From a virus, in UHGV virus genome UHGV-2149192: 22,758 nucleotides of DNA; one strand, 5' to 3'. Below the pieces are notes generated by a model, which ran no database searches, had not been told where the DNA came from, and was given only the letters and a program-made list of their open reading frames with translations. Position numbers and translations under genes: made by a program. The stretch's first letter is position 1. Every line of letters begins with the position of its first letter. This document shows positions 1,903-18,802 of the stretch, piece after piece.

Positions 1903-2639
1903 TGGTTGCCTCCTTTGCGAAGCTGGGCAGCAAAGTCAACTAACCACTCAGTCATTTCAACCTTCCCTACCAGGTCTGAACCAGGGTACATACAGCAATC
2001 ACTCTGCGCCGCTTTGAAATCCTTATACTCATATTCTTGGGCCACCAGATTTTTTGCAGCTTCTATAGCAGCATCCACCCCCTGCGCCAGGACTTCAGCC
2101 AGGAAAGCATCAGTGGTTGGCGTTTCAGGTATCTGTCTCCTCATCCGTTCTATTGCATGATTGAACCCGAAGTCTTCCGCGAGAGATACGTCATCCATAT
2201 TGTCATTGTCATCTTCAATATCCCGTGATTCTGGAATTGCAGACTTTATTCCCGCATTCTCCGCTGCCAGCGCCGTGAAATTACCCTCCAGCTCTGCAAT
2301 GCGCTGTTTTGCGGCATCAAGTTCAATCGATAATTTTTCCAACTGCTCTTTATGCTTCTTGTATTCCTGATATGCGTGCCAGGACTGACCTTTGCGCACA
2401 CTATCAGTAATATCAGTAATCTGTTCTGGTGTTAGAGTGGTCAGTGGCTGTGCTGGGAAAATCAGCACTTTCCCGGAATCCCAATCAAAACCAGCGTGAA
2501 TTGACTGAACTTCAACTGAGGGTGTTGAACCAATGCTGCCAGGCGAATGAACAACGATCGTTACATCCATATCGCGACGATGGCTGTGGTTGTTGGACAA
2601 AATACGATTCACCAACTCAGAAAATTTGGAAAATTTCAT
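1899..2639 (-). CDS. Hypothetical phage protein with coiled-coil segment (246 aa), possibly Ea22-like
   Basis: ATG at 2637-2639 with AAAGGGGAA upstream; acidic stretch (DIEDDNDNMDD) and coiled-coil region; operon-coupled to the downstream gene. Confidence 0.5.
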   Translation of the reverse strand: MKFSKFSELVNRILSNNHSHRRDMDVTIVVHSPGSIGSTPSVEVQSIHAGFDWDSGKVLIFPAQPLTTLTPEQITDITDSVRKGQSWHAYQEYKKHKEQLEKLSIELDAAKQRIAELEGNFTALAAENAGIKSAIPESRDIEDDNDNMDDVSLAEDFGFNHAIERMRRQIPETPTTDAFLAEVLAQGVDAAIEAAKNLVAQEYEYKDFKAAQSDCCMYPGSDLVGKVEMTEWLVDFAAQLRKGGNQ

Positions 2640-2926
2640 GCTGATTCCCCTTTCTCTGCTCTCTCCTGTCGGAACATCACTATCATCAGGTCGCCTTTTG
2701 TCGCTATCCTGGCTGTTGTACCTGGTTCAATGCGGCTAAGCTCAAATGCGTCATAGAACGCTTCTAATGCCTTCTGGCGTAGTTCCTGTTTGCGCCGTTT
2801 TTTCCACTGTTTTAGGAAAATGGAACCCAGCCATCGCCATGTACGGGACATGATGTAAAGCCAACCGAGAAGTGCCAGGCCGACATTCAGGGCCGTTTCT
2901 ATGGTTAGTTGTGAGTCAGTTGCCAT
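2636..2926 (-). CDS. Small predicted membrane protein (96 aa)
   Basis: ATG at 2924-2926; hydrophobic segment ALNVGLALLGWLYIMS followed by a basic stretch (KQWKKRRKQELRQK). Confidence 0.4.
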   Translation of the reverse strand: MATDSQLTIETALNVGLALLGWLYIMSRTWRWLGSIFLKQWKKRRKQELRQKALEAFYDAFELSRIEPGTTARIATKGDLMIVMFRQERAEKGESA

Positions 2927-3206
2927 TTCTTACCTGTTTAAGTAACTGGTTGAACATAACACTTAGGGGATTGCTGTATCCAAACGGCAGATTGTTTACG
3001 CAGTACAGAATCATTTTGTTTTTTTCTCCAGTTCGTACTATTAACCCATTCCACAATAACCGTGATAATTCATTACTGATAGAAGTTGCGCTTCTTCCAA
3101 GTGCGAGGGATATATCTTCTCTACTGCAATCTGGATTTTCCTGGATATACTCGATAACGGTCATGTGGTCCCTTTTACTTAATATCTGTTTCGGATTGCA
3201 TGCCAT
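2916..3206 (-). CDS. Small winged-helix-like DNA-binding protein (start uncertain: 3206 or internal ATG at 3162-3164)
   Basis: Segment EDISLALGRSATSISNELSRLLWNGLIVRTGEK resembles a winged-helix/HTH; an alternative start at 3164 has an AAGGGA Shine-Dalgarno and avoids overlap with the upstream gene. Confidence 0.4.
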   Translation of the reverse strand: MACNPKQILSKRDHMTVIEYIQENPDCSREDISLALGRSATSISNELSRLLWNGLIVRTGEKNKMILYCVNNLPFGYSNPLSVMFNQLLKQVRNGN

Positions 3207-3756
3207 GAGTATTCATTTCGTTAATAATTTCATCCAGAAGAATTTCAAGCCCTTCTCGACCCATATCTGAAAGAATGAAACCTTTATCAGGGGAAGTAGT
3301 GAGCATTTTCTGATAAAGAAACAGCGCTCTTCCCATTCCTTCAGCTTCGCCGTATTTTTGAATTAAATTCCATTCAATATACTGTTGTAAGGCAAATCGA
3401 ATGGGGCCGGGATATATCGTCATAAACCCATACATCCCGTTATATACCACGGCGTGTTCAGTTGTTCCGTGTTCATTCAGGATATCAATTGTGCCGTTCT
3501 TGTCTTCTTCTTCGTTGATGAATGTCGTCACATACAACCATCGCCACTGAGCAACCTTCATCTCAACCGGAAGTTTACCCAGTAATCCTGCTTCGTCGGC
3601 TTGCGCCAGACACTGAAGGATACGTAAACCTCGCACATTAGGAGTATCGAATTCTCCGGCATCCAGACGACGTATGGCGTCGTGATAATCAATCGTCATA
3701 CTGCCAGTTCGTATACCATTGGCTGTTGCTTCAGCCTGGAATTCATCGTATTGCAT
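3175..3756 (-). CDS. Hypothetical phage protein (193 aa)
   Basis: ATG at 3754-3756 with GAGGAA upstream; no recognisable motif. Confidence 0.5.
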   Translation of the reverse strand: MQYDEFQAEATANGIRTGSMTIDYHDAIRRLDAGEFDTPNVRGLRILQCLAQADEAGLLGKLPVEMKVAQWRWLYVTTFINEEEDKNGTIDILNEHGTTEHAVVYNGMYGFMTIYPGPIRFALQQYIEWNLIQKYGEAEGMGRALFLYQKMLTTSPDKGFILSDMGREGLEILLDEIINEMNTHGMQSETDIK

Positions 3757-4162: not shown

Positions 4163-4528
4163 TTATTGCGCTAATTCTTTTTCGGCAGCAGCTTTTGTAT
4201 ACTCACATGCAAAACTCAGAATTTCGCTGCCGAGTGTTTTCGTTTCGTGATTACTGGACATATGTAATACCTGTGTTGCATGCAATAAATGATAAACATT
4301 TACCGCAAATGAATCAGGCTCCAGACAAATGCCTTCGTAATTATCTTGCTGTGAGGTTGTTTCTGTCATTGCTCCTGAAGTGCATGCGAGCCTGTTTTTG
4401 ACAATTCTCTTTTCTCTAATCACTATATCGGCAACATCTATTGCCTTTACAACCTCCGGGAGAAGTTCCGGGTTTGTATAATCAAAGTCATCAACATGGA
4501 GAACAGTTATGTTTTCGAACTTTTTCAT
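4163..4528 (-). CDS. Hypothetical phage protein (121 aa)
   Basis: ORF track; second gene downstream of the left operator cluster; no motif recognised. Confidence 0.45.
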   Translation of the reverse strand: MKKFENITVLHVDDFDYTNPELLPEVVKAIDVADIVIREKRIVKNRLACTSGAMTETTSQQDNYEGICLEPDSFAVNVYHLLHATQVLHMSSNHETKTLGSEILSFACEYTKAAAEKELAQ

Positions 4529-12704: not shown

Positions 12705-12947
12705 ATGACTTTTACCCCTGAGCAATTACGTAAACAGGCACAGGAAATGTTGCGGCAGGCGGAACAACTGGAAAAAACAGGTGTAACAAAAGATGCCATT
12801 CGTCGGGATATGGTGCCAGCGCTCAGGGAACTGATGCAGGCAAAACACCGTGCACAAAAAGCAGTGGATGAGCTGGTGGATTGTGTGGCAGAGCTGGAAA
12901 CCAGAGTTGGTAAGTTTGAAAAACTGGTGCAGGAGGTACTGCGCTGA
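12705..12947 (+). CDS. Small coiled-coil hypothetical protein (start ATG 12705 or TTG 12690)
   Basis: ORF track; helical, charged sequence; start ambiguous. Confidence 0.4.
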   Translation: MTFTPEQLRKQAQEMLRQAEQLEKTGVTKDAIRRDMVPALRELMQAKHRAQKAVDELVDCVAELETRVGKFEKLVQEVLR

Positions 12948-13315
12948 TGCGTGATATGTACGAAGTTTTAGATCGTTGGGGGGCCTGGGCTGCAGCAGAT
13001 AACAGTGGTGTGGACTGGCAGCCGATAGCAGCAGGCTTCAAGGGGCTTTTACCACACGGTAAAAAGTCACGTCTCCAGTGTGATGATGACGAAGGTATCA
13101 TGATAGACGGTTGTGTGGCTCGGTTGCGAAAGTATAAACCCGAAGAGTATGAGTTGATCATTGCTCACTTTGTTATTGGTATCTCATTACGCGCTATTGC
13201 TAAAAAACGGAAATGTTCAGATGGAACAATACGGAAAGAGATGCAAACAGCAATGGGGTTTATTGATGGCTGCTTGTCATTTTTCATTTACTACAATGAC
13301 TTAAGTTCTATGTAA
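12947..13315 (+). CDS. Putative late antiterminator Q (small Q family, QuuD-like)
   Basis: 122 aa, MRDMYEVLDRWGAWAAADNSGVDWQPIAAGFKG...; size, Cys pattern and position (after replication genes, before lysis genes) fit the small Q family as I recall it from E. coli DLP12 QuuD. Not verified by search. Confidence 0.5.
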   Translation: MRDMYEVLDRWGAWAAADNSGVDWQPIAAGFKGLLPHGKKSRLQCDDDEGIMIDGCVARLRKYKPEEYELIIAHFVIGISLRAIAKKRKCSDGTIRKEMQTAMGFIDGCLSFFIYYNDLSSM

Positions 13316-13378
13316 AATCGTTCTACTTTCCCAACTTTTATGTGTATATAATACCAGGATAAAGTAACGGAGAATCTT

Positions 13379-14419
13379 GTGAACATTCAGGCAGTAGACA
13401 TTTTTTGTGGTGCGGGGGGCTTAACTTTTGGGCTAAAAAAAGCCGGGATTGAGGTTTCTCATGGTATTGATATTGATGAATCCTGCCGTTTTGCTATTGA
13501 GAGCAATAATCCTTTAACGCAGTTCATTAATCAGTCAGTTACAGAACTGCAATCCTGCGATGTGTCTGCTATGTTCAAGGAAGGAAATATTAGATTGCTT
13601 GCTGGATGTGCTCCTTGCCAACCGTTTTCCAAGTATCGTAATCCAAATAGCCGTAAAGACGATACAAAGTGGCGTTTGTTATATGAGTTTCAAAGGCTTG
13701 TAAGTGATGTAATGCCAGAGCTTGTGACGATGGAGAATGTTCCTCAACTTAGAAACCATAAGGTTTTTGAAGGGTTTGTTAGTGCATTAAAGACTCTTGG
13801 ATATCATTTGTGGTACGACGTTGTAAGATGTTCTGAGTATGGCTTACCTCAAAATAGACGTAGATTAATTCTAATTGGTTCCCAATTGGGGCCGATCAGC
13901 CTTGATCAAAAAAAAGTTAGCCGTAAAGTTACTGTTAAGGATGCTATTGGTAGGTTGCCAAAAGTAGGGGCAGGTGAGAAGCTGGAAAGCGATCCCTTGC
14001 ATCGTTCGCCTAAATTGATGGATATCAATCTTAAACGAATCATGCATTCTTTACCTGGTGGTACGTGGGATGACTGGCCTGAAGAAATTAGAGCAGACTG
14101 TCATAAAAAGAATTCAGGTGCTACCTATAAAAGCGTTTATGGACGGATGGTTTGGGACGATACTAGCCCTACGATAACTACCCAGTGTTATGGATATGGA
14201 AATGGACGATTTGGCCATCCTGAGCAAAATCGCGCCATAACTTTGCGTGAAGCTGCGATTTTGCAATCCTTTCCAATGGATTATAAATTCCTTGACAAGG
14301 AGACGCCTTTTTCATTCCAAAAATTGGGGACAATGATTGGAAATGCTGTTCCCCCTATAATTGGTCAGATAATAGGGGAAACATTTATCAGACATGTTGA
14401 GGGGATAAATACCCGTTAG
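13379..14419 (+). CDS. DNA (cytosine-5)-methyltransferase
   Basis: Canonical m5C methyltransferase motifs in order: I DIFCGAGGLTFG (FxGxG), IV PCQPFS (catalytic Cys), VI ENV, VIII QNRRR, X GNAVPP. GTG start 13379 with GGAG 7 nt upstream. Lies in AT-rich DNA. Confidence 0.85.
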   Translation: MNIQAVDIFCGAGGLTFGLKKAGIEVSHGIDIDESCRFAIESNNPLTQFINQSVTELQSCDVSAMFKEGNIRLLAGCAPCQPFSKYRNPNSRKDDTKWRLLYEFQRLVSDVMPELVTMENVPQLRNHKVFEGFVSALKTLGYHLWYDVVRCSEYGLPQNRRRLILIGSQLGPISLDQKKVSRKVTVKDAIGRLPKVGAGEKLESDPLHRSPKLMDINLKRIMHSLPGGTWDDWPEEIRADCHKKNSGATYKSVYGRMVWDDTSPTITTQCYGYGNGRFGHPEQNRAITLREAAILQSFPMDYKFLDKETPFSFQKLGTMIGNAVPPIIGQIIGETFIRHVEGINTR

Positions 14420-15077
14420 AGGTAATATAATTTTCTGTTGAGTTGATTAATAAACGCAAATATAGATCAATTCTTTCTGACCTCGATTTGACTTCTTCTA
14501 AAGGGTCTATTTGACCTTTTTTAGAAAAGCTGGTACTTCCATGTGCCAGCTCATTTCTGATATCTTTAAGTAAATCTAAGTCAACACCATTTCTACACTC
14601 TGGTGAGTTTGCAACAGTTATTCCGTAAGCTTGTGTTATTTTGTGCAATACAGACTTGCAAACATTACCATTGAATTCTTTACGTATGTTTAATGAGGCT
14701 GAAATGATCCTTTTAGATATATCGGAACCAATTTTTTGATAAAGAGATTTTCCCGATTCATTATCTGAAATGATACGGTGCAAGATATTTACTTGGAATT
14801 TCTCCCTGAGTGATGCGTAATTTACTTCATTATCTTGCAAATGGTCATAAATTGACTCAATGCATCCTCTGGCAGTGTTTTCAACCTGATTGTACAGCAT
14901 CATGTGCACGGATGATTTTAAAATGTTAACCCTAAGGGTATTTGATTCTATTTCATCTTTATGCGTTTGCTGATCTAACTGCTGAGTCTGAGCCTCTAAA
15001 GATGACGCAAGAGAAAGCAATTCCATAATATCTCTTGCTCTTTCTTCGTATTCATCTCTTAAATCAATCAAACTCAT
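14388..15077 (-). CDS. HEPN-like protein (R-x4-H motif), downstream partner of the DUF262 gene
   Basis: ATG 15075-15077 with AGGAA upstream, 2 nt after the DUF262 stop (operon-coupled). Mostly helical, charged sequence with RNELAH near the C-terminus, matching the HEPN R-x(4-6)-H signature. Inference only. Confidence 0.5.
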   Translation of the reverse strand: MSLIDLRDEYEERARDIMELLSLASSLEAQTQQLDQQTHKDEIESNTLRVNILKSSVHMMLYNQVENTARGCIESIYDHLQDNEVNYASLREKFQVNILHRIISDNESGKSLYQKIGSDISKRIISASLNIRKEFNGNVCKSVLHKITQAYGITVANSPECRNGVDLDLLKDIRNELAHGSTSFSKKGQIDPLEEVKSRSERIDLYLRLLINSTENYITSNGYLSPQHV

Positions 15078-15079
15078 AG

Positions 15080-16237
15080 TTACATTCCTAATAATTTATC
15101 TTTGACATAAAATATTCTGTTTTTGAGTTGGCTGGTGTTGTTGGCACTATCAGCAGTAACTATGGTTTCAAATTCCTCCCCAAACAGCCAGTCTCCTACA
15201 GGAATAACCGGAGCCTGTAGATGTGGATTGGCTTTTAAGGCAAGAGCAGTTCCCACTGCTATGGCTTCGTATCTAGCACGGGGGGTGGTTTTGCTTGTTG
15301 GTGTCTTTTTAAACCCCATAGGGAAATGAGCATCTACAAAAGCAAGCATGCTTTCAAAATCATGTTTAAATTTGTCTACATCTTGTTGTGTGACCCTTTC
15401 GGCCTGAACATTAAGATAATTGTCAATAAAAGGAGCGACATAACCCTTATAATTTTCTAAATCATTTAAGTATGCAAAAAATCTCAAAACTAACTCACGA
15501 TGATCGCCATTCGAACGTTTCCGATCTGATAATGGAGCTAGACTAGCGAAAAGTGGATTTGTTGAGCAAGGAGTCACAACATCCCTATAGAAAATTGAAG
15601 TGGCCGCATCTGAACCATGTCTAACCTCCATCGCTTCCAGTCTCTTAACACCTGAATTTATTCTTTCGAATAAATCTCTTCTATGCTGCTCCTCAACATC
15701 ACCTTTCAATTCAATAAATCTTAGTGATGCCCTTAAAAATCGCCTCTGGCGGCTAGCCAAAAGATCTGAAAATTTGAAGCCCTCTAAACTTTTGAGTTCT
15801 TTTAAGTCTTTCAATTCAAACTGATTGTTCCAAAAGTAGTAAATTGAGCGAATCCTTTGTGAACCGTCAATAATTTCTACACGACCATCCAACTCAGGAT
15901 CTTCATTAAATACGTCGGAGATGTAGAGGTACGGGATTGGAAAATCTAATAATATACTTTCGATGAATCGAGAGGCTGTTTTGATATCCCATTTGTAATC
16001 GCGTTGATAATCAGGAATAAAAAGTTCGTTTTTGTCAGTTTCAAGATTATTGCCATACTTTTGTACAATTAATTCAACGGTCCATTCACGTACGTTGTAT
16101 CCAATATTTCTCTGAGCAAGCCTAATCTCGTTGTCGGCAGAAGTGACCAAGGCTGCAATTTCAGCTTTTTTTCTATTTTTCGCGTTTTCATCTTGAATCT
16201 GAGCAAGCTCTTCTTTGAGTTCTTTGAGTGTGGTCAT
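15080..16237 (-). CDS. DUF262 (ParB-like / GmrSD-N-terminal-like) domain protein
   Basis: Both DUF262 hallmarks are present: FIPDYQRDYKW and IIDGSQRIRSI (DGQQR-type). ATG 16235-16237 with AAGGAA upstream. No DUF1524/HNH-type C-terminal motif recognised. Confidence 0.75.
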   Translation of the reverse strand: MTTLKELKEELAQIQDENAKNRKKAEIAALVTSADNEIRLAQRNIGYNVREWTVELIVQKYGNNLETDKNELFIPDYQRDYKWDIKTASRFIESILLDFPIPYLYISDVFNEDPELDGRVEIIDGSQRIRSIYYFWNNQFELKDLKELKSLEGFKFSDLLASRQRRFLRASLRFIELKGDVEEQHRRDLFERINSGVKRLEAMEVRHGSDAATSIFYRDVVTPCSTNPLFASLAPLSDRKRSNGDHRELVLRFFAYLNDLENYKGYVAPFIDNYLNVQAERVTQQDVDKFKHDFESMLAFVDAHFPMGFKKTPTSKTTPRARYEAIAVGTALALKANPHLQAPVIPVGDWLFGEEFETIVTADSANNTSQLKNRIFYVKDKLLGM

Positions 16238-16347
16238 ATCACTGTTCCTTTAATTGGAGTTGGAAATAGATTGTAAGAAAACTATAACGCGTACGCAAAA
16301 AATATTATATCGTGTTAAGAGTGGTTACTACGCCACACAGCTTAAAC

Positions 16348-16367
16348 CCGCCGCCAGGCGGTTTTTT
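16348..16367 (+). terminator. Short GC hairpin plus T6 (terminator-like) in the intergenic region upstream of the DUF262 operon
   Basis: CCGCC-gcca-GGCGG followed by TTTTTT. Confidence 0.3.
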
Positions 16368-16490
16368 GTGTCCGAAAAACGGCGCAGTACGTTAAACGTG
16401 CTGGTGGTTGCGAATACCTGTCTTTCAGCTTGCTGGCTTTTTCGACAAGAGTTATTGGTGTGTCACGTTAACCGGAAAAGGGAAAAAGAC

Positions 16491-16654
16491 ATGCTAAAAC
16501 AGCAGGATATGACAGAAACCGCCAGAGTAGTGTTTAATGAATTAAGCGTTACCGAACCGGCGACAGTCGGGGAGATAGCGCAGAATACTTACCTTTCACG
16601 CGAACGCTGCCAGTTAATACTGACCCAGCTGGTTATGGCGGGTCTGGCAGACTA
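16491..16654 (+). CDS. Small HTH-like protein, truncated in this assembly by the N-run
   Basis: ATG 16491 (AAGGGA upstream); MLKQQDMTETARVVFNELSVTEPATVGEIAQNTYLSRERCQLILTQLVMAGLAD then runs into N. The ORF-track entry 16254..16835 is an artefact of a TTG start and translation through the N-run. Confidence 0.4.
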
Positions 16655-16750
16655 NNNNNNNNNNNNNNNNNNNNNNNNNNNNNNNNNNNNNNNNNNNNNN
16701 NNNNNNNNNNNNNNNNNNNNNNNNNNNNNNNNNNNNNNNNNNNNNNNNNN
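16655..16750. other. Run of 96 N (assembly gap or masked bases)
   Basis: Directly visible; content and true length unknown. Confidence 1.
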
Positions 16751-16827
16751 GGGTTCACAAGCAAACCTCAGGCCCACTGCTTTGCGCAAAAGCAGAATGA
16801 GCCTATCAGAGACAGGCTTAATGATCC

Positions 16828-17877
16828 ATGCTTAATACTGTAAAAATATCCAGTTGTGAGTTAATCAACGCCGACTGCCTGGAATTTATCCGGTCGTTAC
16901 CCGAAAATTCTGTTGACCTGATAGTCACGGACCCGCCGTACTTTAAAGTGAAGCCTGAGGGCTGGGATAACCAGTGGAAGGGCGACGATGATTACCTGAA
17001 GTGGCTGGACCAGTGTCTGGCGCAGTTCTGGCGGGTGCTGAAACCTGCCGGAAGTCTTTACCTGTTCTGTGGTCATCGCCTGGCATCTGATATCGAAATC
17101 ATGATGCGTGAACGCTTCAGTGTGCTGAACCATATTATCTGGGCGAAGCCGTCCGGACGCTGGAACGGATGCAACAAGGAAAGCCTGCGGGCGTATTTCC
17201 CCGCCACAGAGCGCATTCTGTTCGCGGAACATTATCAGGGGCCGTATCGTCCGAAAGATGCCGGGTATGCGGCGAAGGGCAGTGCACTGAAACAGCATGT
17301 GATGGCCCCGCTGATTTCTTACTTTCGTGATGCGCGCGCGGCCCTGGGGATAACGGCAAAACAGATTGCAGATGTCACAGGAAAGAAAAACATGGTGTCG
17401 CACTGGTTCAGTGCCAGTCAGTGGCAGCTACCGAACGAAAGCGATTATCTGAAATTACAGTCGCTGTTTGCCCGGGTGGCAGAAGAGAAACATCAGCGCG
17501 GTGAACTGGAAAAGCCCCACCACCAGCTGGTGGATACGTATACGTCACTGAACCGGCAGTATGTGGAGCTGCAGAGTGAATATAAGCATCTGCGGCGGTA
17601 TTTTGGTGTGACGGCGCAGGTGCCGTACACGGATGTATGGACACATAAACCGGTGCAGTTCTATCCCGGGAAACATCCGTGCGAAAAACCGGCAGAAATG
17701 CTGCAGCAGATAATCAGCGCAAGCAGTCGTCCGGGTGACCTGGTTGCAGATTTTTTTATGGGCTCAGGTTCAACGGTAAAAGCGGCACTGGCGCTCGGGC
17801 GTCGTGCGATTGGCGTTGAACTGGAGACCGGACGTTTTGAGCAGACAGTCAGGGAAGTTCAGGATTTAATCGTTTGA
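16828..17877 (+). CDS. Beta-class amino-methyltransferase (N6-adenine or N4-cytosine DNA MTase)
   Basis: Motif IV DPPY (LIVTDPPYF) near the N-terminus and the AdoMet-binding FFMGSGST near the C-terminus (IV-then-I order of beta-class N6_N4 MTases); no adjacent endonuclease candidate. Confidence 0.8.
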   Translation: MLNTVKISSCELINADCLEFIRSLPENSVDLIVTDPPYFKVKPEGWDNQWKGDDDYLKWLDQCLAQFWRVLKPAGSLYLFCGHRLASDIEIMMRERFSVLNHIIWAKPSGRWNGCNKESLRAYFPATERILFAEHYQGPYRPKDAGYAAKGSALKQHVMAPLISYFRDARAALGITAKQIADVTGKKNMVSHWFSASQWQLPNESDYLKLQSLFARVAEEKHQRGELEKPHHQLVDTYTSLNRQYVELQSEYKHLRRYFGVTAQVPYTDVWTHKPVQFYPGKHPCEKPAEMLQQIISASSRPGDLVADFFMGSGSTVKAALALGRRAIGVELETGRFEQTVREVQDLIV

Positions 17878-17926: not shown

Positions 17927-18002
17927 GGCCCTTTAGCTCAGTGGTGAGAGCGAGCGACTCATAATCGCCAGGTCGCTGGTTCAAATCCAGCAAGGGCCAC
18001 CA
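17927..18002 (+). tRNA. tRNA-Ile2 (anticodon CAU, ileX/ileZ-like)
   Basis: GGCCCTTTAGCTCAGTGGTGAGAGCGAGCGACTCATAATCGCCAGGTCGCTGGTTCAAATCCAGCAAGGGCCACCA: perfect 7-bp acceptor stem, anticodon loop CTCATAA, T-loop TTCAAAT, encoded CCA; closely resembles E. coli ileX as I recall it. Confidence 0.8.
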
Positions 18003-18009
18003 TCACATA

Positions 18010-18086
18010 CCGCCATTAGCTCATCAGGAAAGAGCGCCAGCCTTCGAAGCTGGTTGCGCGGAGTTCGGGTCCCCGAAGGCGGTCCA
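18010..18086 (+). tRNA. tRNA-Arg-like (anticodon UCG) with imperfect stems; possibly degenerate
   Basis: Cloverleaf can be drawn with anticodon loop CTTCGAA (UCG) and encoded CCA, but the acceptor stem has an A-A mismatch, the T-stem has an A-C mismatch, and the T-loop is TTCGGGT. Confidence 0.45.
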
Positions 18087-18099
18087 TTATCTGTATCCT

Positions 18100-18176
18100 G
18101 CGTTGTTAGCTCAGCCGGACAGAGCAATTGCCTTCTAAGCAATCGGTCACTGGTTCGAATCCAGTACAACGCGCCA
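18100..18176 (+). tRNA. tRNA-Arg (anticodon UCU)
   Basis: GCGTTGTTAGCTCAGCCGGACAGAGCAATTGCCTTCTAAGCAATCGGTCACTGGTTCGAATCCAGTACAACGCGCCA: perfect acceptor stem, anticodon loop CTTCTAA, T-loop TTCGAAT, CCA encoded. Confidence 0.8.
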
Positions 18177-18466: not shown

Positions 18467-18802
18467 TTATGGACTTTGTTGTTTTAGTCCATAAGGACAT
18501 ATTTGCAGAGTGCAACGGTTATTAAAGCATTCATTCAATACGTTATCTGTATTTGTAGGGCATTCCTGGCTGTTTTTGATTAAATTCCAGAATGTTTTAT
18601 TGAATGGTACTACGTTGTAAATGGTTACAGGTAGCACTTTGTTATTGAGCATGATGCCTGTGTGAGTCAGTGTAAATATACTTTCAGGAGGTAAGAAAGC
18701 ATCCGATTGATACCAGATTATTAATTTTATTTTACTCCATATGACTGAAAAAGATATTCCGCATGATGGCTGGATAACTGTATCAATCACAATCCACTTC
18801 AT
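18467..18802 (-). CDS. Hypothetical protein (111 aa) in an AT-rich island at the position where Stx phages carry toxin genes
   Basis: ATG 18800-18802 with AAGGAA at 6-nt spacing; C-terminal Cys-rich segment ([24 protein letters not shown]); sits in an AT-rich block between tRNAs and lysis genes. No similarity recognised. Confidence 0.35.

Follow-up and report, generated by a model that had tools for sequence, protein, structure and literature searches.

Two described systems come closest to the locus studied here. A MAE_28990 HEPN / ParB(DUF262) / DNA methylase operon class was listed in 2013 (Anantharaman, Makarova, Burroughs, Koonin & Aravind, Biol Direct 8:15, Table 1; PMC3710099), in a single table row and with the generic proposal that HEPN RNases in restriction-modification (R-M) loci act like PrrC, a mechanistic analogy put forward for all HEPN-R-M linkages. 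PD-T4-2 of Escherichia coli ECOR65 is a two-gene 'DUF262, HEPN' operon that protects against T4 (Vassallo 2022, Nat Microbiol, PMC9519451). Its deletion in native ECOR65 dramatically raises T4 plaquing efficiency, and the system (1,540 bp long; 1.8 kb in its cloned form) is active in K-12 without a methylase. The ten T4-selected systems, PD-T4-2 among them, generally protected against T2 and T6 too (PMC9519451).

DUF262 proteins also serve in other defence contexts. Domain analysis of Menshen (NsnABC; Millman 2022) placed methylases beside some loci and raised, as a speculation, that ParB-DUF262 may target non-modified genomes (PMC12065111). The characterised DUF262 enzymes all sense modified, not unmodified, DNA: the SspE DUF262 domain senses host phosphorothioate marks and BrxU acts on m5C DNA in vitro. 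SspE also causes growth arrest without its cognate DNA-modification module. A literature search for DUF262 with HEPN, with or without a methylase, turned up the 2013 genomics paper, some reviews, PD-T4-2 and the Menshen analyses, and no experimental work beyond these.

A three-gene cassette next to the prophage Q gene

The window, i.e. the whole 22,758-nt stretch of virus genome UHGV-2149192 that was analysed, harbors three intact genes that fill an AT-rich cargo slot directly past the antiterminator Q gene (12947-13315, plus strand; Phage_antitermQ PF06530, E = 3.3e-47), which forms the left border of the slot. Our ORF calls and the RefSeq/PGAP gene calls show no differences, and both agree with the convergent layout and the 2-nt operon gap described in the first-pass annotation. 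The turn to AT-rich composition that it had noticed past a Q-like gene is equally clear (GC of 0.35-0.41 over 13001-17000 against 0.49-0.53 upstream). From the cassette span it had proposed, 13316-16490, the genes stand while the right end has to be moved: cargo proper stops at about 16305 and positions 16309-16490 are prophage backbone common to phage phiP27 and Stx phages. The same backbone in phiP27 carries a different nuclease-type gene in the Q-proximal slot, which fits the expectation for a defence-cargo hotspot. This slot, occupied by stx in related phages, would then be an exchangeable defence-cargo site, a point that bears on prophage biology.

The plus-strand gene (13379-14419, GTG start) encodes a 346-aa C5-cytosine DNA methyltransferase (MTase) matching PF00145 over its full length (E = 9.5e-54, model positions 2-322 of 324) and also the TIGR00675 dcm superfamily (E = 6e-35). 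Every catalytic motif previously named for it was found in the translation (FCGAGG, GCAPCQPFS, ENV, QNRRR, GNAVPP), and we predict that this m5C MTase is the modification arm of the trio. A Dcm-like identity was discarded (NF007772, 16.5 bits against a cutoff of 710). The nearest solved structures (DNMT1 catalytic domain, 3g7u and M.HaeIII) align with it over the catalytic core only and do not allow its specificity to be inferred.

On the minus strand, a 385-aa DUF262 protein (15080-16237) combines a ParB/Srx-fold NTPase with a helical C-terminal half (PF03235, E = 1.1e-25, the accession also given in the first-pass annotation) and carries both motifs quoted for it, FIPDYQRDYKW and IIDGSQR. 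Pfam, motif and structural comparison found no nuclease domain in it, and it is predicted to be the DNA or modification sensor. Its stop codon is separated from the ATG of the next gene by 2 nt (15078-15079, minus strand), which we read as translational coupling. That gene (14388-15077, minus strand) encodes a 229-aa protein of the HEPN_MAE_28990 family (PF18737, E = 3.8e-16, 60.4 bits against a gathering cutoff of 26.8, positions 5-209 of 211), named MAE_28990/MAE_18760 family HEPN-like nuclease by PGAP/RefSeq. Its Rx4H motif is R174-N-E-L-A-H179 and its helical-bundle fold resembles solved HEPN domains by fold comparison, so the HEPN call, rated the weakest part of the first-pass annotation, holds well. 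The arginine is kept in 76 out of 77 homologues from diverse phyla and the histidine in all 77. We predict this protein to be an RNase effector; between them, the two partners present a ParB-fold NTPase and a HEPN (RNase-type) domain and no recognisable DNA nuclease domain. The HEPN and MTase genes converge with a 3′ overlap of 32 nt (14388-14419) that leaves no terminator space between them.

Sequence features that may drive expression are found at both ends. The Q-MTase intergenic region (13316-13378, plus strand) shows a TATAAT-like box (TGTATATAAT) and a GGAG Shine-Dalgarno ahead of the GTG, possibly representing an MTase promoter or a phage late promoter; the stretch is nearly identical in a Klebsiella prophage cassette and partially conserved in phiP27. 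Upstream of the DUF262 gene, a cassette-specific region (16238-16305, minus strand) includes an AGGA Shine-Dalgarno, with TATAAT on the minus strand at about 16303-16308 and phiP27 homology from about 16309, and is presumed to hold a putative DUF262-HEPN operon promoter and the right end of the cargo. A generic sigma-70 scan was uninformative, returning fewer sites than shuffled controls and missing the visible TATAAT boxes, so these expression signals stay putative.

Linkage of the methylase to the DUF262-HEPN pair

Word-indexed searching for HEPN homologues proved insensitive (31 matches, 42 with a profile) and exhaustive as well as locus-based profile searches were needed instead. The exhaustive search yielded about 1,280 clusters (50% identity) at E ≤ 1e-10. 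The family occurs in at least six phyla and is widespread in cyanobacteria, the source of its name, and in proteobacteria. Conservation of the gene pair, which had been put forward as a check, is strong: out of 80 species-level loci, 76 have HEPN directly after DUF262, and of the other four, three lie at contig ends and one is decayed. The gap between both genes, measured at 71 intact loci, has a median of -1 nt, is ≤10 nt in 70 and is an overlap in 44. Pairwise identities of the two proteins are correlated as well (Spearman 0.86).

Over the same 80 loci, an orthologous MTase converges on the pair in most lineages and takes other orientations in further clades. The convergent arrangement is seen in 35 loci, with overlapping ends in 26 of them (median 4 nt, maximum 68). 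Such convergent trios are found in Pseudoalteromonas as Tn7-like cargo, in Photobacterium between housekeeping genes, in Pseudomonas adjoining McrBC, and also in unrelated Klebsiella prophages, a P2-like coliphage and a Klebsiella linear plasmid. Considering the 41 complete trios, the MTase is the best-conserved gene (median 53% identity) and its residues ~180-300, the presumed TRD, are conserved to the same degree as the catalytic core. MTase presence, position or replacement tracks the clades of the DUF262 tree: the gene was lost once, relocated once and in further cases exchanged for another m5C or an N6 MTase. A monophyletic cyanobacterial clade has the pair without an MTase, adjoining ClpB or aconitase genes; the pair is therefore not intrinsically dependent on an adjacent methylase.

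In 5,426 complete E. coli genomes, MTase and pair were each detected in 107, both split 73/34 between alleles, and all 107 have the cassette as one contiguous whole; this survey returned neither a solo MTase nor a solo pair. Carriers thus make up 2% of complete E. coli genomes and include an ST131 isolate. At the level of sequence comparison, conserved synteny, co-evolution and perfect co-occurrence show the MTase to be an integral partner of the pair and not separate cargo. The first-pass annotation had allowed for either; its partner option stands on this basis and its independent option does not.

Decay at individual loci is mostly one-sided: the predominant pattern is decayed effectors next to an intact MTase (L031, L043 and L067). 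The opposite situation may exist. An A8 homopolymer within the MTase gene (13908-13915, plus strand) is the site of a 1-nt deletion (A8→A7) that frameshifts the MTase of E. coli strain 639, and the MTase of phage P24B2 is frameshifted by G8 in place of the expected G7, both with intact effectors. A split, distant MTase at a MAG locus (L033) is a possible third MTase-defective case. Both homopolymer frameshifts may be sequencing errors; if they are real, the MTase is not a strict antidote, and the prediction that no MTase-null allele occurs beside intact effectors found no clean confirmation given these two cases. We speculate that such single-base runs within the methylase gene (A8 in this cassette, G7/8 in P24B2) could allow phase-variable switching.

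Proposed mechanism and competing readings

The cassette is most reasonably read as serving defence or abortive infection. The likeliest single explanation, which we consider about an even call, is that it works as one three-gene R-M-like defence module with an RNase effector, carried as prophage cargo. In such a module the m5C MTase would mark resident DNA, that of the host chromosome as well as that of the prophage, at one fixed short motif, and the DUF262 protein, with its ParB-fold NTPase, its helical DNA-binding half and its lack of a nuclease domain, would read the modification state of DNA and control the translationally coupled HEPN RNase, probably in complex with it. Unmarked incoming DNA would release the RNase, and cutting of phage and/or host RNA would lead to growth arrest or abortive infection. 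Starting from the domain identities, the intact catalytic motifs, the tight DUF262-HEPN coupling and the co-inherited orthologous methylase, we infer the anti-phage function, methylation as a self mark, RNase activity along with its targets, and a switch that unmethylated DNA activates. Support for a defence module comes from the PD-T4-2 precedent, the 2013 operon listing and the precedent of the SspE modification module. A more specific version, in which m5C is the self mark, DUF262 the reader and HEPN RNA cleavage the read-out of an R-M system without a DNase, spread as a compact 3-kb module on prophages, transposons and plasmids, is advanced only tentatively.

Several points count against the defence module: PD-T4-2 works without a methylase, the cyanobacterial pair stands alone, MTase frameshifts possibly adjoin intact effectors, no DNA nuclease is evident, and the characterised DUF262 enzymes are modification-dependent. 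All of these except the point on the nuclease favor an alternative that we regard as rather improbable, namely that two independent functions share the cargo slot: a self-sufficient PD-T4-2-type DUF262-HEPN system, e.g. sensing hypermodified phage DNA like GmrSD, and an orphan or anti-restriction methylase that travels along and would protect element DNA in new hosts. The selection of PD-T4-2 on T4, with T2 and T6 generally covered too, and the swaps of the methylase for a different class in some clades fit this alternative as well. However, an orthologous methylase with a conserved TRD keeps its convergent, end-overlapping geometry in 35 of 80 loci and takes other orientations in further clades, across at least six phyla and in many unrelated contexts, the E. 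coli genomes show perfect co-occurrence without solo parts, and hitch-hiking would not hold linkage over such distances.

Slightly less probable still is a logic like that of SspE, by which DUF262 would bind the m5C marks of its own element, licensing or tuning NTPase and HEPN, so that the mark would be a requirement for activity instead of a shield against it. Sensing of host marks by SspE and BrxU activity on m5C DNA speak for it, and linkage to an MTase of fixed specificity fits it as well as it does the shield model. On the other hand, an antidote model predicts the predominant decay pattern, in which effectors decay while the MTase stays intact, and one clade keeps the pair with no MTase nearby. 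We deem quite unlikely a selfish addiction module, in which cassette loss would dilute methylation and free a long-lived DUF262-HEPN toxin, stabilizing the carrier element with defence as a by-product: the trio does occur on lambdoid and P2-like prophages, in Tn7-like cargo and on a linear plasmid, persists intact in a decayed prophage remnant and has the convergent M/R-like layout typical of addictive R-M systems, but it is also found at chromosomal sites, in islets flanked by housekeeping genes and beside McrBC, and addiction is compatible with a defence role rather than exclusive of it.

Returning to the self-mark logic of the defence module, if it is true a ParB-fold NTPase would turn DNA methylation state into RNase activation, giving the link between R-M-type discrimination and abortive infection that genomics has predicted since 2013. 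For tests in a native setting, the copy on the E. coli prophage is convenient. Defence finders that rely on PADLOC v2 would probably overlook the trio because its HEPN partner lacks a model.

Comparison with known systems

Gene content of the cassette is identical to that of the MAE_28990 HEPN-ParB-methylase class, with a MAE_28990-family HEPN, an Rx4-6H motif, a same-strand DUF262 gene 2 nt upstream and an adjacent methylase. On the sensor side, the DUF262 protein is related to PD-T4-2_A and at most a putative orthologue of it: it matches the PD-T4-2_A model (E = 4.3e-27, 93 bits, a comparison through PADLOC HMMs and not direct sequence alignment), with the NsnA model scoring higher (155 bits). 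The HEPN protein had no PADLOC match to PD-T4-2_B even at E ≤ 10; its likeness is at the Pfam level only, by a cross-match to PF18735, to which PD-T4-2 is reported to belong. With 229 aa, the cassette protein is the larger of the two HEPN proteins.

Menshen NsnA is the best PADLOC match of the DUF262 protein (E = 5.6e-46, model positions 13-301 of 385). Both are ParB-DUF262 proteins with a helical C-terminal half, and Menshen shares the proposed logic of a DUF262 DNA sensor governing an RNase effector. Membership is excluded since the cassette has neither an NsnB ABC/OLD-type ATPase nor NsnC (inPIN + BECR nuclease); HEPN lies downstream and there is no ATPase gene, so that sensor and effector are directly adjacent and the effector is HEPN. 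No PADLOC model match was obtained for Dazbog.

The DUF262 NTPase has the same QR, DGxQR and FxxxN motifs as GmrSD, BrxU and SspE, and the latter two are among its best structural matches; SspE likewise works with a cognate DNA-modification module. The cassette falls outside this group for want of a C-terminal DUF1524 His-Me (HNH) nuclease: its effector is a separate HEPN protein and the linked modification is m5C from a single methylase. That DUF262 sensors carry alternative effectors in different systems bears out the effector swap suggested by the first-pass annotation. A classical type II R-M system is excluded too: the cognate m5C MTase is present, but no sequence-specific DNA endonuclease domain is evident. 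PrrC-EcoprrI offers a likeness in having a HEPN RNase (anticodon nuclease) genetically embedded with DNA modification and restriction genes (type Ic R-M locus). PrrC, however, includes an ABC-type NTPase domain of its own, and a complete type I R-M enzyme keeps it silent, whereas the cassette has only the methylase and DUF262, with no R-M endonuclease or helicase.

The architecture, which had been taken as undescribed and unnamed, is therefore not so: 'DUF262, HEPN' is the validated PD-T4-2 (PMC9519451), which the trio resembles, comparative genomics listed the trio class in 2013 (PMC3710099), and PGAP names the HEPN protein. To that 2013 description, given without experiment, methylase analysis or prophage example, the present analysis newly adds the MTase partnership, the Q-slot location in E. 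coli, the conservation of the TRD, the MTase changes that follow clades and the linkage seen across E. coli genomes.

The cassette and its prophage setting

The window represents a lambdoid E. coli prophage. An identical stretch of strain FAH carries annotations for, in this order, an integrase, a CI-like repressor, replication genes, Q, the cassette, a small hypothetical gene, an N6/N4 DNA methylase, three tRNAs, lysis genes and terminase; the stx gene is absent from the window. After the Q antiterminator gene (12947-13315; Phage_antitermQ, E=3.3e-47, Pfam), GC content is 0.35-0.41 against 0.49-0.53 upstream, and the AT-rich cassette described there by the first-pass annotation is borne out by this drop and by three intact ORFs whose boundaries are those of the RefSeq gene calls. 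On the plus strand, 13379-14419 encodes a 346-aa m5C methyltransferase matched over its full length by PF00145 (E=9.5e-54, Pfam). Converging on it from the minus strand are the genes of a 385-aa DUF262 protein (15080-16237; PF03235, DUF262/GmrSD_N, E=1.1e-25) and, after a spacer of 2 nt, of a 229-aa HEPN protein (14388-15077; PF18737, HEPN_MAE_28990, E=3.8e-16, 60.4 bits vs a cutoff of 26.8; second match PF18735, RiboL-PSP-HEPN, E=6.7e-8), the latter overlapping the 3′ end of the methylase gene by 32 nt. The earlier domain calls for all three proteins are supported by these Pfam matches, every motif quoted with them is found in the translations, and the active sites are intact, with C79 as the PCQ cysteine of the methylase and R174 and H179 as the motif residues of the HEPN protein. 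The span originally given, 13316-16490, holds for the cassette but not for its right edge: the cargo ends at ~16305, and 16309-16490 is backbone common to phiP27 and Stx phages.

Putative expression signals can be read from the sequence. A TATAAT-like box and a Shine-Dalgarno precede the methylase gene. Both recur almost unchanged in a Klebsiella cassette and are conserved in part in phiP27, so that this stretch could be a phage late promoter region; TATAAT and AGGA precede the DUF262 gene. A strong terminator-like hairpin on the plus strand (16348-16370; CCGCCGCCAGGCGG then TTTTTTGTG) belongs to a backbone stretch that is also conserved in phiP27 and could be a Q-dependent late terminator. 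If a late promoter directly follows Q, the methylase and other plus-strand cargo would sit between promoter and terminator. In phiP27 itself, this slot, bounded by Q and a conserved segment of ~180 bp (L090, the phiP27 locus, 2240-3469), is occupied not by the trio but by the gene of a 409-aa T5orf172/MUG113 (GIY-YIG-type) protein, and because its content differs the Q-proximal slot behaves as an exchangeable cargo/defence hotspot.

Further downstream, a 95-N run (16656-16750) masks the spacer before the N6/N4 methylase gene together with the 3′ end of the small gene that begins at 16491. RefSeq lists this gene as a 198-bp hypothetical, and in the phiP27 annotation it is a TrmB-family regulator; because of the mask, the listed ORF 16254-16835 is an artefact. 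The N6/N4 methylase (16828-17877, plus strand; PF01555, E=2.2e-44; PADLOC MTase_II, E=5e-167) belongs to the backbone common to phiP27 and Stx phages, and the prophage therefore encodes two methylases of different classes ~2.4 kb apart. Three plus-strand tRNA genes (17927-18176) show the ileZ-argN-argO-like arrangement of Stx phages, the first being called Met(CAT) by ARAGORN and Ile by PGAP, and the lysis genes lie directly 3′ of them. Other AT-rich patches (GC 0.33-0.40; 3175-3756, 4163-4528 and 18467-18802) hold minus-strand ORFs without a Pfam match and may be further morons; around the last of them RefSeq has just a short partial pseudogene annotation.

Linkage of the three genes across lineages

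Relatives of the DUF262 protein were gathered from 80 species-level loci, with neighbouring genes called by profile searches. The DUF262-HEPN pair is kept as a unit in 76 of the 80, HEPN lying directly downstream of DUF262, and the exceptions are three contig ends and one decayed locus. Translational coupling is evident in the gap between the two genes, which has a median of -1 nt, is at most 10 nt in 70/71 cases and is an overlap in 44/71. A methylase orthologous to that of the window (phmmer E<1e-90) converges on HEPN at 35/80 loci, with overlapping ends in 26 of these 35.

The trio keeps its geometry in genomic settings unrelated to one another, as seen in the neighbourhoods of diverged DUF262 homologues. 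In Pseudoalteromonas (locus L002, 6001-13302) it directly adjoins Tn7-like tnsC/tnsD(tniQ)/tnsE genes, which suggests that it travels there as Tn7 cargo. It is flanked by housekeeping genes in Photobacterium and adjoins McrBC in Pseudomonas. Among Klebsiella elements it is found on a linear plasmid and in no fewer than two unrelated types of prophage, and a P2-like coliphage carries it in its hotspot.

The three family motifs of the DUF262 protein hardly vary: Q78-R79, D124-G125-x-Q127-R128 and N194 are present in 81/81 homologues and F190 in 80/81. The best matches of the predicted model are BrxU, ParB-like proteins and SspE. The C-terminal half is helical. The absence of the usual His-Me nuclease noted in the first-pass annotation stands, as this half has no invariant histidine, no DUF1524 match and no nuclease fold among its structural matches. 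The HEPN protein also has a distant relative, at 27.6% identity over residues 53-224, in nine Moraxella catarrhalis phages (Mcat24-32; KR093648-KR093656).

The methylase as partner

Among 41 complete trios, median pairwise identity is highest for the methylase (53%), followed by DUF262 (49%) and HEPN (33%). In m5C methylases the target-recognition domain lies between motifs VIII and IX, and in these trios that stretch equals the catalytic core in conservation, which argues for one fixed specificity across the family. Pairwise identities correlate at a Spearman coefficient of 0.86 for DUF262-HEPN and 0.49 for DUF262-MTase, values of which only sign and size are meaningful because the data points are not independent.

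Methylase status follows the clades of a neighbour-joining tree of the DUF262 proteins. Most of the tree shows the convergent m5C arrangement; in one clade the orthologous methylase lies upstream, and one small clade has a more distant m5C methylase. In a beta/gammaproteobacterial clade (L054, 1715-11851; L052, L061, L063) the pair is flanked by the genes of a 1,376-aa MmeI/Eco57I-like N6 methylase and of a ~1,330-aa helicase-like protein with Helicase_C as its only Pfam match; this four-gene co-directional operon may be a separate and larger system with the same pair at its core. A single monophyletic cyanobacterial clade (L056-L089; e.g. L062, 5962-7739, and L073, 5962-7766) carries the pair beside ClpB or aconitase B, with no methylase near it in the locus neighbourhoods.

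Among 5,426 complete E. coli genomes, 107 (108 places) are matched by the methylase query and likewise 107 (108 places) by the pair query, and 107 contain the cassette as one contiguous block. Both queries give the identical allele split, with 73 copies near-identical and 34 belonging to a second allele. Identity of this second allele is 90.6% for the methylase and 84.5% for the pair, so the effectors diverge faster than the methylase. The first-pass annotation allowed for the methylase as either a partner or an independent cargo gene; our analysis identifies it as a dedicated partner, inherited together with the pair and conserved in its recognition region.

Proposed mechanism and relation to known systems

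Because of these properties of the methylase, restriction-modification (R-M)-like logic with an RNase output is our leading hypothesis, and it is directly testable in E. coli. The methylase would mark resident DNA, and the DUF262 NTPase would read DNA modification status and control the HEPN RNase as effector. We infer such a module from literature precedents: PD-T4-2 is a validated DUF262+HEPN defence (Vassallo 2022, PMC9519451), DUF262 is a modification-sensing NTPase regulating an effector in GmrSD, BrxU and SspE, SspE depends on its cognate modification module, and HEPN genes of R-M loci have been likened to PrrC in an earlier proposal. We likewise infer that the module acts against phages, that methylation labels self DNA, that the effector attacks RNA, and which way the switch works. 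The full statement, a methylation-coupled, R-M-like module with a HEPN RNase effector under DUF262 control, has in our judgement about an even chance of being right.

Less probably, the element's own marks might license the effectors in the manner of SspE. A mainly addictive role of the module is likewise improbable. At three loci (L031, L043, L067) the effectors are decayed beside an intact methylase, the asymmetry that an antidote model predicts, in small numbers. A strict antidote role must be qualified, given that PD-T4-2 works without a methylase (Vassallo 2022, PMC9519451), that the cyanobacterial clade is without one, and that two methylase genes are frameshifted beside intact DUF262 and HEPN genes. 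The first, flagged by PGAP in E. coli strain 639 (NZ_CP187284.1; L091, 5961-7000), lacks one A in an A8 run (A8->A7), the sole difference over 1,041 nt from another strain's copy, and the window methylase carries the same A8 tract (13908-13915); in phage P24B2 (LR595873; L094, 2021-3041) a G8 run where G7 is expected shifts the frame by +1 and splits the orthologous gene. Both look like typical homopolymer sequencing errors and could also be real slippage or phase variation. Independent cargo functions, with pair and methylase separate, are improbable: neither a solo methylase nor a solo pair was found among the complete E. coli genomes, and the three genes very probably form one functional unit.

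The first-pass annotation did not recognise the architecture as a named system; it is not new to the literature, its gene content having been catalogued in 2013 as the MAE_28990 HEPN-ParB-methylase operon class, all four features of which the window trio shows (Anantharaman 2013, PMC3710099). RefSeq already names the HEPN protein of the cassette, both effectors fall in PHROG families of unknown function, and no experimental study of the trio was found in the literature. GmrSD-type enzymes have only the DUF262 domain in common with the window system. Menshen (NsnABC) is alike in its NsnA-type sensor and sensor-to-RNase logic and unlike in its ATPase and NsnC, which are absent from the cassette. 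The closest validated system is PD-T4-2 (QOYX01000002:338334-339873), which, unlike the trio, has no methylase. Membership in it fails on the B component, as the window HEPN protein has no PADLOC match to PD-T4-2_B even at E<=10, and the window DUF262 protein scores best in PADLOC against NsnA, ahead of PD-T4-2_A. Occupying a cargo slot of an E. coli prophage, the trio belongs to a mechanistically unstudied family that is related to PD-T4-2 and was catalogued by computation.
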